From Octopus vulgaris (lineage: Eukaryota), in assembly GCA_951406725.2 (NCBI GenBank), contig OX597814.1, positions 200,942,001 to 201,006,000 on the forward strand: 64,000 bases of DNA. Direction: 5' to 3'. A program made the translations under genes and the position numbers. The notes below the pieces were generated by a model. The model worked only from the letters and a program-made list of their open reading frames with translations, searched no databases and was not told the origin of the DNA. The first letter of the stretch is position 1. Each line of letters opens with the position of its first letter. Shown here one piece after another: positions 7,696 to 50,263 of this stretch.

Positions 7696-8270
7696 TTGAT
7701 AGAAATGGTATGACAACAAAAGAGTGAAAGAGACCTCGATATTATGTAAATAGAGGAATTTTGTCTGTAAATGTAATATGTGACAATTATTTGGTAGCCA
7801 TGATAAACTCCGAGTTTCATATGTCGGGGTGGAAATCCATGCTGTCAAGCATTTTTCCGATGGCTGGATAACTGAAGCGATGGCGGCGTGGATTTCCATC
7901 CCGACATCCGAAACTCAGAGTTTTATCATGGCTACCGAATAATTGTCACATATTACATTTACAGATTTGTCCTGTTATTACTATTCTTGTTTTTTTATTT
8001 CTATTTTTTGTTTCTTGTATTTATATTCGTGTGGCATCCTGTCCTTGTGTCGTATACATTCGATCATTTTTCCAAGAAATCTAATGCGCATAGCTTAGTT
8101 TTTCTTTGGGGCTAGCCGTATCGGAGCGATATCAGGATTAATCAGCCGAAATTGCTAAGATAATCCGGTTCCCGACTGAAGATTAGAGGCTTCGAATGAC
8201 CCGTCTATTTTTTTGTGTCGTCTTTTAGTGTGTTTTTGCGTTCTTGTCCCATTTTGTAATTTATATTTAA
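7696..8270 (+). mobile_element. (TA)n-embedded element with inverted arms and a decayed hammerhead (Penelope-like, inferred)
   Basis: Arms 7764-7847 and 7881-7965 are reverse complements, and (TA)n flanks both sides. Its 3' part matches 45320-45430 on the opposite strand. Confidence 0.6.
7867..7927 (+). ncRNA. Degenerate type I hammerhead ribozyme
   Basis: GATAA-CTGAAGC-GATG..CATC-C-GAAA-CTCAGAG-TT-TTATC. Stem I is GATAA/TTATC; the core has one mismatch (CTGAAGC instead of CTGANGA). Confidence 0.5.
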
Positions 8271-8297
8271 TTTATATATATATATATATATATATAT

Positions 8298-9619
8298 TTA
8301 AGTAGGTGAATGAATTATCCCAGTATGGATAATTCGGTTAATCGATACCTGGGTAGCAAATTCACGTCAGAAAACACGGTTGAAGCTACATGCCAAGGGC
8401 AGAAACCCCGTGTTCTTGTGTGGAAATTTGTGTTTTTTTTATATGAATAAACGAAAGAATGGAGTCGAACGAAGATTTTAACAAAATTCCTTTACTCTCA
8501 ACACATGTTTCGAAGACTGCATACTCTTAATTCCGAAGGAATAAAGGGTGCATTATGCCGTCTTCTCATCAGGAAAGACAAGGAACCTATATCAGCCTCA
8601 AGACGAACAAAAACTTTTTGATGACTGCCTACATGGTGTCCACAGTGATAATGAGTGTTTTTTAAAAATAATCCGTTATAAGCAATGACGTCAAAATTGG
8701 TTGGAAGGAGGAAGTTCTAAAAATAGGAAGGGGACAGTATGTATGCTGTATGTATGGGGATGTGCGGGTGTTTGCTTTTGTTAATGAGTTTGATTGTTTA
8801 TGTGTGTGTATGAGTGTGTGTGTGTATAACTGCATTTGTGTGTGTGTGTGTGTGTGTAATTGTGTGTGTGGGGGTCAATTGTCAAATATATTTAGTAGTG
8901 AGGTGACAAATTTGTGTCTGTGTGTTTGATTGTGCCTATGATAGAGAGAGAGAGAGAGAGAGGGGGGGAGAGGTAGAGAGAAAGAGATAAACATACGCCA
9001 ACGATATTTAGTAGTAATGTTTCATGCAACGGAGTAGACAGAAAGAATTTGTCTATGGCAGTGGTGTAGACGTGAAACTAATTATTAAAACCAAAGAGGT
9101 TATCTATATTATTTATCATTTATATGAGTGGAAAGTGTGCTTCTGCCAATGCTTACATTTATAGGATTTTTCTATTAGTGTGTTTACCAAGGGAAACTTG
9201 GCGAAAAGGATACAGAAGAGTTCAGAATTACAAATGCCACAATATTTCCTGCCCTTATCAAAAGGAAAGGATACAGACAATATGGGCCAATCCATCTTGA
9301 AAGTTATATTGTTGTCCTTAAGACGCCAAACTAATTTACTTAGTCCTGTACTTTGTTGTTTTCTCTTATCTCAGAAAGTTGAATAATGATTGGAAATTCT
9401 CTGGGACAATCGAGAAGTTGTCGCACCAATATAGAAGAAGACATCGGTACCGGAAGAAATTTTACACTGGTAAATGGAATTTTTTATTTTGTAATTACTG
9501 GACAAGAACTTTAATCTGTTAGGGTTTTCCTCCGAGATCAAGACGGAGTTTTTATGCAGTCTTCGAAGCATGTGTTGAGAGTAAAGGATTTTTGTTAAAA
9601 TCTTCGTTCGACTCCATTC
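8298..9619 (-). mobile_element. Penelope-like retroelement 3' portion: GIY-YIG endonuclease remnant, 3' UTR and inverted terminal copy
   Basis: Minus strand ~9490-9120 reads NSIYQCKISSGTDVFFYIGATTSRLSQRISNHYSTF*...STGLSKLVWRLKDNNITFKMDWPI...CGICNSE...KCKH, a Penelope-type GIY-YIG with Cys/His tail. 9553-9619 is an inverted copy of 8457-8523. (TA)n on both sides. Confidence 0.85.
8495..8577 (-). ncRNA. Type I hammerhead ribozyme in the Penelope 3' region
   Basis: Minus strand: CTTTC-CTGATGA-GAAGAC..GTCTTC-GAAA-C(ATGT)G-TT-GAGAG. Stem I CTTTC/GAGAG, 6-bp stem II, intact core, GUU triplet. Confidence 0.8.
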
Positions 9620-9659
9620 ATATATATATATATATATATATATAAAACTTGGAGAATGA

Positions 9660-10085
9660 CTGCACAACTTTCTAAAAGATAGATGTCAGGCAGTTGTGGC
9701 CAACAGAGCCACCTCTAAGGAAACACAAATAGCAAGTGGTGTTCCACAAGGCACTGCTATTCATAGTGGCCCTCTCGGACATGCCCACAGCTGCTCAGAT
9801 GGCCACCCTTGCAGATAACACAAAGTCTCTCAGACAATACAAAATCCTGGAAATATTGCACATCTGCAACAGGAGTTGAGCGCAATATATAGGAGGGCTG
9901 AGGACAACAATATGCAGTTTAATGCAGGAAAATTCCAGCCCCTATGCTACCAGCACACAAAGCTAAACAACATGCAGACAGGGTACACAGGCCCAGGAGG
10001 AATTGAAATCCTTGAATCAAAATCAGTGCATGACCTGGGCATTGACATGAACAATGAGGCATCTTTTCAAGTGCATATTACCAAT
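9660..10085 (+). mobile_element. CR1-like LINE reverse transcriptase fragment
   Basis: SGVPQG motif, degenerate ADD, then LQQELSAIYRRAEDNNMQFNAGKFQ...VHDLGIDMNNEASFQVHI. Frameshifted. Confidence 0.8.
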
Positions 10086-10329
10086 TTATGTCGTTTCTTT
10101 CATACACGTACTACAAAAGAAATCAACATTTCAGATCTTGGACTTCGACAGTGTTCTAAAATACCTCTTCTTGTGAGTGTCAAGATGCTTCTCCAAAGCA
10201 AGTTTTCCTGGAATATTTCTCAATTTATTGGCCTATCAAATGCAATCGATAGTATCAATTCAACAGACCTTTAACTTTCGTGACACAGATTACGAAGTTC
10301 AGTTCATTCATAGTCTTGCTAAATCTCCC

Positions 10330-10680
10330 TGGGAGTACCGCCTTTAGTCGAGCAAATCGACCCTAGGACTTATTCTTTGGAAGCCTAGTACTTATTCTAT
10401 CGGTCTCTTTTGCCAAACCGCTAAGTTACAGGGACGTAAACACACCACCATTGGTTTGTCAAGCGATGTTGGGGGACAAACACAGACACACAAACATATA
10501 CACACACATACATATTTATATATATACATATATACGACGGGCTTATTTCAGTTTCCGTCTATCAAATCCACTCACGAGGCTTTGGTCGGCCCGAGACTAT
10601 ATTAGAAGACACTTGCCCAAGGTGCCACGCAGTGGGAATGAACTTACCACACAAGCTACTTACCACACAGCCACTCCTGC
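10330..10680 (-). mobile_element. SINE family A
   Basis: Matches the family A consensus. Confidence 0.9.
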
Positions 10681-10829
10681 GAATGTAACTTTATAGAGTA
10701 ACTTTGAACAGTATGCATTACTTTATTTCTGGCTAAAATAGAGAGGTAGAATTTGTAGGCAATCGCTTGTTGAACAGGAAGAGCTCATTCTGTTTTTACT
10801 TGCTGGGTCGGGAAGAATGGGGAGTTACC

Positions 10830-48112: not shown

Positions 48113-48214
48113 AAAAGAGAGAAAAGAGATTATGTGCGATGGTTTACAGTGCTTCGTTCAGTTTCTGCTAATACAAGGTGTGGCACAAAAAGCATATTAA
48201 AGGATAAAGGTAAA

Positions 48215-48550
48215 AGATAAAGACACTCTTCAGTCATGAATGGTCATGGGATTGCATCTAGAAAGTTACCCTCCTGGACAACAAGTCCAGGCAAGGTTGT
48301 TTATGGAAGACCAGCAGTTACCCATTCATACCAGCCTCCTCTCTCCATGTCACCAATGTTATCCAAGGGAAAAGCAAAGGCTGATACGTCTTGGCAACAG
48401 TGATGTTGCAATTCATATCTACAGATGAGTGAACTGAAGCAATGTGAAATTAATGTGTCTTGCTCAAGAACACACCACACAGCCTGGTCCAGGAATCGAA
48501 CTCACTATCTCATTGTTGTGAACCTGACACTCTAACCACTGAGCCATGTG
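48215..48550 (-). mobile_element. tRNA-headed SINE, family E (second copy ~61075-61370)
   Basis: Minus-strand head GGCTCAGTGGTTAGAG...GAGTTCGATTCC, then GTGTTCTTGAGCAAGACAC central domain. Confidence 0.8.
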
Positions 48551-49023
48551 ACACCTTATATTTTACAAATCAAGAATTATGAACCTGGGAGGGTTTTTTT
48601 TATCACACTCTGTATTGTCTTAGCTGTGTGGTAGCATATCTGCTTCTTAATCACATGGTTCCAGGTTCAGTCCCACTGTGTGGCACCTTGGGCTAGTTTC
48701 TTCTTGTACAGCTCCAGGCCAACCAAAGTTTTGTGAGTGGATTTAGTGGGCAGAAACTGAAAAGAAGCTCTTTGAATATATGTATATATATCTATATATA
48801 TATAGATATATATATATCATCATCATCGTTTAACATCCGCTTTCCATGCTGTATATATATATATATATATATATATATATATATACATGAGTTCAGCAAA
48901 AATTTAGATTGAGATGAATATGGTACTTAAGTTGAGGCACCATAATTTTGTATGGTATTATCCATACAATTTCAAAATAAGGTGATTAAAATCAAAATAA
49001 GCAACAAGGATATCCAGGAGTAA

Positions 49024-49115
49024 TGCAGTACGATCGTTTCATGGGACTCCATTTAATTGAACAGTGCAATCATTTCATTACATCAATTTAAAATGTAGAG
49101 CAATCTTCAGCTGCA
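49024..49115 (-). ncRNA. Type I hammerhead ribozyme with weak stem II closure
   Basis: TGCAG-CTGAAGA-TTGCTC..GAGTCCCAT-GAAA-CGATCG-TA-CTGCA. Palindromic stem III ACGATCGT and a GUA triplet. Confidence 0.72.
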
Positions 49116-49617
49116 CAAAGACATAGAATTTAATTAAATTAGAAGGACACGTTGGTATAATTTTACCTGAAATCTCCAAGAGGATAAGAAGATAGGCAAA
49201 GAACATGTTTTACCAACAATATCACAGGTGTTACTGAAATCTTTTTCTCCTGCAGACACTGCCTGTCACTGATTGTTCTGTTATTTAGTTTTATTATGAG
49301 GGGTGGGGTCAGTTTTAATTTATAGACTAGTTTATCAAATCCGTTGCATATTTAAGGCTGAGAGAAGACAGAGGGTAGTATCTGTTTGGGGTAGAGTTGG
49401 TGGAGTAGACAGACATTCTAAATGGCATAGTCATAAAAATCAAGATTTATTTGAAGCAATGTCATGAGGTTTAGTAAGAGAATACTTAAAACAAGATGTT
49501 GGCTGATAATTAAGGGATACCCACTAGCAGACCAATGATAATGGGACAGGGTAAGTCTTATCATGTAGTACTACAGTTAACTACTATAAAACAATTCTGC
49601 TATATTGTATACAGATA

Positions 49618-49849
49618 GGGCGGCGAGCTGGCAGACACGTTAGCGAGCTGGGCAAAATGCTTAGCGGTATTTCGTCTGTCGTTATGTTCTGAGTTCAAAT
49701 TCCGCCGAGGTCGACTTTGCCTTTCATCATTTCTGGGTTGATAAATAAAGTACCAGTTTCACACTGGGGTCGATGTAATCGACTTAATCCCTTTGTCTGT
49801 CCTTTTTTGTCCCCTCTATGTTTAGCCCCTTGTGGGCAATAAAGAAATA
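49618..49849 (+). mobile_element. SINE family B with a 17-bp TSD
   Basis: TATATTGTATACAGATA at 49601-49617 and 49850-49866. Confidence 0.92.
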
Positions 49850-50263
49850 TATATTGTATACAGATAAAGTTTAGGGATATTCAAAAGATTATTAAGAAGA
49901 ATATTTATGAATACTTCTTAGTATATATCAAAACTTTACCACCATACGGGGAATGATGAGGATGATATATATATATTTATACACACACACACACACACTG
50001 GATATCCTTGTTGCTTATTTTGATTTGTATATATATATATATATATATATATATATATATATATATATATAAATATATGTATATAATTTATCCCAAAGAA
50101 ATGAAGGAAAATATGCAAGAAAAAACAAGAATCTGAGAAAGTGGTACATGCAAAGGATACATACATACATATATACATACACACACACATACATACATAC
50201 ATACATACATACATACATACATACATACATACATACATACATATATACATACACATACATATA

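Follow-up and report, generated by a model that had tools for sequence, protein, structure and literature searches.

Penelope-like elements (PLEs) of the Hydra clade have been described as carrying hammerheads and as leaving an inverted 5'-truncated copy with a tail at (TA)n, Hydra-1_Obim being among them (Craig et al. 2021, PMC8557442; all sources are cited here for those parts of them that were available). Non-LTR (long terminal repeat) retrozymes have been described by Cervera and de la Pena (2020, PMC7229834), and retrozymes have already been recognised as non-autonomous PLEs (bioRxiv 10.64898/2026.07.22.740005). For the Naiad PLEs, the available part of PMC8557442 reports no canonical hammerhead and notes a 'HHR_half_core' without structure. 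Cleavage in vitro has been shown for rearranged hammerheads of types SGC and CSG (Eckert et al. 2023, PMC10085705); the three-block scheme of that study assumes that block C cannot be interrupted and, in its available part, such RNAs were not found in known organisms except for one weak GCS candidate. Here, we analysed a window of 64,000 nt of Octopus vulgaris DNA (OX597814.1, 200,942,001-201,006,000; coordinates below are those of the window) and searched the genome from which it comes (2.80 Gb). According to the best overall explanation, which we consider likely, the TA-targeting Penelope-like insertions of the window fall into two classes, namely known families with type I hammerheads (A1, B, C, D and E) and non-coding families whose RNA would adopt a non-circular hammerhead fold (A2 and F).

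Predicted hammerhead fold of the A2 and F families

A first-pass annotation of the window had treated the stretch at 7.7-8.3 kb as one hammerhead element. It is composed of two unrelated elements, A1 and A2, split at 7965/7966. The claim holds for A1, which has a type I hammerhead with an inversion, but not for A2, the fold of which is not type I. Two ribozyme-like elements beyond the earlier list, F1 and F2, lie at 21.4 and 60.2 kb.

7966..8272, plus strand: A2, non-coding; copy of a 769-nt unit, truncated at the 5' end, with its 3' end at (TA)n; no inverted copy in the window
8057..8198, plus strand: predicted non-circular hammerhead of A2; P1 5' strand 8057-8071, P2 hairpin 8072-8109, stem II 5' strand 8110-8115, P4 5' strand 8116-8122
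8126-8137 (S), 8142-8155 (G) and 8170-8198 (C), plus strand: blocks of the A2 hammerhead; predicted cleavage after A8131
21406..21700, plus strand: F1, non-coding family; predicted non-circular fold as in A2 at 21453-21576, predicted site after C21522; one A of GAAA missing
60155..60350, plus strand: F2, F-type copy truncated within the fold; blocks G and C only
45295..45430, minus strand: 3' tail fragment related to A2 (beta), without ribozyme

The 769-nt A2 unit occurs in partial tandems, and 3 of 30 full-unit loci show an inversion. In A2, GAAA lies upstream of CTGANGA and the block order is S-G-C, where S comprises stem III, H17 and stem I, G comprises strand c', GAAA and stem III, and C comprises stem I and CUGANGA. 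One parse accommodates three subfamilies (A2, alpha and beta), running from the P1 5' strand through hairpin P2, strand c, the P4 5' strand, block S, a link, block G, the P4 3' strand and block C to the P1 3' strand. In this parse, the 5' strand of stem II comes from upstream and A9 continues into P1; stems I and III stand in hammerhead register, helix P4 connects the far ends, and the link from stem I to stem II measures 1-5 nt. As read from the sequence, P1, hairpin P2, stem II and the core converge in a four-way junction, in which stem II (c/c') would stack under A9.G12 and P1 on P2. Cleavage would occur after H17 (A8131 in the window) and would trim or circularise tandem transcripts. The window copy of A2 has one stem II mismatch and an A.C in stem I. 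Type I and type III parses of A2 failed, as the stem I partner is missing downstream, and a downstream GGCT was ruled out as stem II strand, being absent in beta and in Naiad. A2, alpha, beta and the Naiad of this genome are compatible with a K-turn between stem III and P4, whereas F and the Naiad locus L471 introduced below are not, and the K-turn was rejected as a general feature.

The arrangement resembles type SGC (PMC10085705) in A2, F and the Naiad of this genome alike: the order S-G-C, the short link from stem I to stem II, a far-end helix and all core nucleotides are common to both. However, the 5' strand of stem II does not follow A9 here, a P1/P2 four-way junction is present, and P4 is joined to stem III by both strands; type SGC is moreover known from metatranscriptomes only, whereas the split fold is found in animal genomes. 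The predicted split S-G-C fold is not type SGC, because the stem II partner lies upstream and block C is therefore interrupted.

Pattern matches in the genome greatly exceed those in controls (9,829 versus 49 for A2, 5,794 versus 8 for F, 369 versus 2 for the Naiad of this genome). In 47 of 63 distinct A2 matches, the 16 truncated or unassigned ones being excluded, 60-100% of the copies are paired per position throughout stem III, at the two leading pairs of stem I and at the five leading pairs of stem II; the range is 84-100% for both of the larger subfamilies. In P4, a single position is unpaired in A2 and likewise in alpha. For the F superfamily, which comprises about four subfamilies, 17 of 29 F-type matches are intact upstream, and block S was not fixed by the pattern. 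In these, 83/85 stem I and 49/51 stem III pairs are formed as compared to 69.1 and 39.7 after partner swaps (reached in 0 of 5,000), the swap controls taking no account of relatedness, which inflates such tests. H17 is U, C or A in all 17 cases and never G. Across ten families or elements, own pairing amounts to 48/50 in stem I, 50/50 in stem II and 30/30 in stem III versus 0.44-0.56 upon cross-pairing, in a comparison from which L021 was excluded (failed anchor), of which five rows were found by a descriptor requiring the stems and in which the stem II partner was the best run. The additional helices, neither of which was used to find the motifs, are also supported when six unrelated groups are taken together (combined p 7e-6 for P1+P2 and 0.003 for P4).

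A fold that is real may nevertheless act only between two copies, as a domain-swapped dimer in tandem transcripts in the manner of minimal Penelope hammerheads. Dimeric action has been described for PLE hammerheads (PMC4209133), the partial tandems of A2 would supply the partner, and the single-strand cage topology may be strained. However, stems III are 4-10 bp long and non-palindromic, needing no partner, and the link from stem I to stem II is as short as in monomeric type SGC, so that exclusive action as a dimer appears quite unlikely. We consider it probable that the 3' RNA of A2 and F, as predicted from sequence, folds into a non-circularly permuted hammerhead shared with Naiad, which is likely self-cleaving.

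Related predicted folds in Naiad retrotransposons

The genome of the window contains close relatives of the published Naiad_Ovul/Obim 3' ends. In 42 of 53 copies that were used, stems I, II and III of this Naiad 3' end are paired in 36-41 copies per position with wholly different letters, and at one locus (L461) a Naiad reverse transcriptase (RT) frame lies ~1 kb upstream of the fold. Among viral contigs, no Naiad relatives were found, and the decayed Naiad RT gave no match in a word-based protein search. A profile of five Naiad fragments from this genome retrieved 1,919 proteins, and an alignment of 14 long ones led to 24 loci from other sources, 16 of them with at least 350 nt after the match. 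These Naiads (L470-L493), several with intact open reading frames (ORFs), lie in contigs of bacterial or archaeal genome bins and are most likely animal DNA carried in.

Five of the 16 loci parse as non-circular folds. L471 and L481 have the split form with P1 and P2; L473 and L474 are type CSG, with the order C-S-G, stems I-III and uninterrupted blocks; and L472 is CSG with two hairpins (P1/P2) inserted between A9 and stem II. An ORF with N-terminal GIY-YIG, CxC, DKA and RT is present in L472, L473, L474 and L481, and CxC, DKA and RT are present in L471, where the frame begins after the endonuclease (EN). A strict descriptor returned four matches in the Naiad loci from other sources, all on the sense strand and downstream of the ORF, as compared to 0.17 in 30 shuffles and none in 149 control loci. 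Inspection by eye of 23 published Naiad 3' ends revealed six split folds (Obim, Ovul, Esco, which is imperfect, Bfor with a stem I of 2-3 bp, Movir-2 and Plae) and five of type CSG (Parc, Nbra-1, Nbra-3, Hpol and Smim); four remained unresolved, and in eight no core is present in the displayed stretch, which is mostly the final 600 nt. Six of seven 'HHR_half_core' records examined parse as folds of blocks S, G and C, the half cores corresponding to the blocks parsed here. L473, L474 and the five published CSG ends, from nematodes and spiders, fit type CSG fully by sequence. In the available part of PMC10085705, this type was reported from metagenome DNA without host or element, whereas here it is tied to Naiad 3' untranslated regions (UTRs). 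Naiad-2_Dst, Naiad-3_Dst, Naiad-Ppla, Naiad_Sdum, L485 and L493 contain core-like words that gave no parse. In L476-L480, Naiad_CGi and Naiad-1_Skow, the hammerhead core is absent downstream of the ORF; the ends of the latter two share a different conserved 3' motif, which may be another structured RNA.

These data also bear on the possibility that repetitive, AT-rich DNA pairs by chance into the non-circular parse, the type I families alone being real. A loose or AT-tolerant descriptor does give false matches (mean 0.8 in window shuffles; one at 31.0 kb), the strict descriptor gives a single false match in the window, in an AT-rich array, and the published Naiad ends were parsed by eye. However, compensatory changes occur between subfamilies and between unrelated families, and the position is confined to Naiad 3' UTRs on the sense strand. 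In viral and metagenome contigs, the A2 pattern produced chance matches only, which later served as controls, and stem I is missing in 28 of 29 of the metagenome matches. Chance pairing is thus a very improbable explanation.

Alternatively, the fold could derive from a hammerhead yet have no catalytic role, being retained as an RNA element that the Penelope protein recognises or that serves in priming. In its favour, block C is interrupted, insertion by the Poseidon enzyme in vitro did not need hammerhead cleavage (PMC11167929), and the K-turn-like loop in four families suggests protein binding. We nevertheless regard this as unlikely, since all catalytic positions are kept across unrelated families, N7 and H17 vary only among the allowed letters, and the CSG relatives fit a type shown to cleave. 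For a hammerhead that is likely active, the split form could be described as type CSG circularly permuted at the inserted P1 loop, with L472 as an intermediate; it may have arisen from CSG with the insert when the P1 loop opened and P4 closed onto stem III.

Several observations, together with the limits given above for the swap controls and the ten-family comparison, weigh against an active non-circular hammerhead. At position 3 of stem I, 17 of 25 A2 copies have an A.C, that is, a fixed mismatch. P1+P2 alone is not significant in the Naiad of this genome or in F/L522, nor is P4 alone in several families, and the strict descriptor misses A2 and F1 of the window, both of which carry substitutions. 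We found no tested precedent for interrupting the strand between A9 and stem II, and strain is possible in the closed cage that stems I, II and III-P4 form. No parse was obtained for 11 of the 16 Naiad loci with downstream DNA and for 12 of the 23 published ends. Finally, none of 60 A2 loci is linked to an ORF and 30 F loci yielded one weak ORF match; the Naiad of this genome is decayed and older than A2 (131 of 3,762 candidates scored), and no autonomous partner turned up for A2 or F.

In line with the lack of an ORF in A2 and F, which sets them apart from Naiad PLEs, the ORF by which Naiads are defined (N-terminal GIY-YIG, CxC, DKA and RT) is not linked to either family, and only the 3' fold is common. 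A large intact Neptune family was ruled out as parent of A2 by its 3' sequence. An abundant Neptune-type family (L554-L561) has open frames of up to ~1,100 aa; its 3' motif resembles a minimal hammerhead and stops at (TA)n. L135 represents a further split-fold family of this genome that is unrelated to A2, F and Naiad.

Taken together, the comparative sequence data give strong support to the putative non-circular, junction-bearing hammerhead of A2, F and Naiads as a new variant. It appears fairly likely that many Naiads, from ctenophores to octopus, carry active hammerheads of non-circular permutation (CSG, CSG into which a four-way junction is inserted, and a seventh permutation, with the opening inside block C), and that non-coding retrozymes with a knotted fold are present in at least 15,000 copies in this genome. 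Our literature search, which left most subscription journals outside, found no paper linking Naiad or Penelope with non-circular hammerheads or octopus ribozymes. If true, these folds would overturn the statement that Naiads lack hammerheads, in a clade dominating many invertebrate genomes, and would provide the first home in known organisms for non-circularly permuted hammerheads. They would also add a topology that the three-block scheme excluded by assumption, with L472 as a natural intermediate. Counts of animal ribozymes would then be underestimates, because all standard hammerhead descriptors miss these folds.

Type I hammerhead families

The first-pass annotation had also reported five dissimilar elements in TA microsatellite, six hammerhead folds, an inverted self-copy in each element and coding sequence in only one. 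All of this was borne out. BLAST detected no similarity among the five stretches, (TA)n borders each of them on both sides, and each contains an inverted copy of its own 3' part (7764-7965; 8457-8523/9553-9619; 39183-40172; 44864-45299; 48989-49017/49998-50026). Six type I folds are present in the window, and by tblastn only B encodes protein.

7697..7965, no single strand: A1, non-coding family with a type I hammerhead, inserted here as a head-to-head hairpin; 3' ends at 7697 (long) and 7965 (short)
7867..7927, plus strand: type I hammerhead of A1; A9 changed to C in the window copy, CTGAAGA in most family copies
8297..9619, minus strand: B, autonomous Hydra-like Penelope element, truncated at the 5' end; long 3' end at 8297; short piece in inverted orientation at 9553-9619
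8495..8577, minus strand: type I hammerhead of B; predicted cleavage after 8500
9119..9553, minus strand: C-terminal GIY-YIG endonuclease fragment of B; one in-frame stop
39183..40177, no single strand: C, a 535-bp tandem retrozyme unit inserted head to head; type I hammerheads 39469-39546 (minus) and 39922-39999 (plus)
44804..45299, no single strand: D, a 363-bp tandem retrozyme unit inserted head to head; its type I hammerhead (45034-45075, minus) has a U3-A8 core
48886..50027, minus strand: E, truncated; contains a type I hammerhead (49024-49115), an inverted piece (49998-50026) and a nested, unrelated repeat (49613-49855)

A1, A2 and B are stacked at neighbouring TA runs (7619-9643), with A2 and B on opposite sides of a single (TA)12 and pointing towards each other. 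A strict type I descriptor matched three times in the window (8572 minus, 39542 minus, 39926 plus), whereas 100 shuffles gave 0.08 matches on average and at most one. The folds of A1, D and E each fail this descriptor by single substitutions and are intact in family copies; in the Rfam scan of the window, no hammerhead family appeared among the best 150 of 287 matches. Two folds had been called decayed. D is not decayed, since its family core is TTGAAAA, a U3-A8 variant from which the window copy deviates only in the stem III palindrome. The U3-A8 covariant has already been reported (PMC4209133).

Every element is a member of a genome-wide family. First-look candidates numbered 2,853 for B, 1,176 for C, 1,236 for D, 3,080 for E and 3,535 for A1, which are not copy numbers; 40 were scored per family. 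An autonomous parent was found for B, whose relatives encode RT followed by a C-terminal GIY-YIG within one ORF (frames of 833 and 804 aa). One of them, L174, has the complete layout of inverted piece, pseudo-LTR (pLTR), ORF and pLTR, and the nearest protein matches include one from Argonauta. In the family B frames, DKG is changed to DKT and RWL stands where the RWK motif is expected; by eye, CxxC and CxH flank the conserved E and N, without CCHH. Pfam did not recognise the B endonuclease and ORFs.

Thus B, and probably E and A1, resemble Hydra-clade PLEs (PMC8557442) in the type I hammerhead in the pLTR, the (TA)n and the inverted 5'-truncated copy with tail, and B additionally in having RT before a C-terminal GIY-YIG, DKT, and CxxC/CxH around E and N. 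In contrast to these PLEs, B has no CxCX5C linker, the tails measure 60-145 nt here versus 30-40 there, and the hammerhead of Hydra-1_Obim is none of the five found here. Between RT and EN, none of 17 family B ORFs (L147-L184) has the linker, the region being Asn-rich instead. Because the linker is absent, B is Hydra-like only and is not filed in the Hydra clade. Family B combines a type I hammerhead in the pLTR with (TA)n insertion, and 49 of 50 of its 3' ends lie at (TA)n without linker cysteines, which argues against a need for the linker zinc finger in TA targeting. In family E, one of 25 loci contains an inverted Hydra-like RT piece.

C and D form arrays of ~12 and at least 4 units, with periods of 535 and 363 bp, respectively. 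As non-coding tandem units with one type I hammerhead each they resemble the non-LTR retrozymes (PMC7229834; bioRxiv 10.64898/2026.07.22.740005), from which they differ in that their insertions show a PLE signature of (TA)n, head-to-head inversion and two fixed 3' ends. A2 is also such a unit, but with a fold that is not type I.

Insertion ends and proposed priming

Insertion ends were counted on distinct insertions with both flanks. Inversions are present in 20/30 loci of B, 16/23 of C, 15/21 of D, 12/25 of E and 24/25 of A1, the last value being biased as the hairpin was the query. The 3' ends lie at (TA)4 or longer in 49/50 cases for B, 33/39 for C, 36/36 for D, 43/49 for A1 and 20/37 for E, the reference of which ends short of the long 3' end. 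This is far above the background of 4.8% of the window and 8.6% of loci. Downstream of the cleavage site, two 3' ends are preferred in each family, at internal TA-like words (B, +60 and +201-203; C, +182 and +291; D, +175 and +238; A1, +42 and +109). The two preferred ends fit both-strand priming at internal RNA sites; in vitro, the Poseidon Penelope enzyme starts at such a site and extends both strands (PMC11167929). In all families, a Penelope RT/GIY-YIG enzyme would nick (TA)n and prime at a fixed internal UA-rich RNA site; if both strands are primed, copies would lie head to head and have two fixed 3' ends, and arrays would result from templates that are tandem or circular.

Hence, the view of these elements as microsatellite-targeting, Penelope- or retrozyme-like families agrees with multi-copy families, an RT and GIY-YIG parent of B, tandem non-coding units of C and D, and 3' ends fixed at (TA)n. 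The possible novelty of the module was overrated, however, as the inverted copy, tail, (TA)n bias and hammerheads have all been described before (PMC8557442), and the finding as first posed is known.

Other features of the window

Frames at 28338-29222, 40857-41291, 58072-58944 and 34991-36361 are presumably remnants of Pif1/Helitron helicase, pogo/Tigger transposase and LINE RT, which they resemble. An imperfect hairpin is located at 25371-25599, and an inverted pair at 24445-24498/25453-25506. Finally, a 5S rRNA-like copy at 43938-44056 scores above the Rfam gathering threshold.

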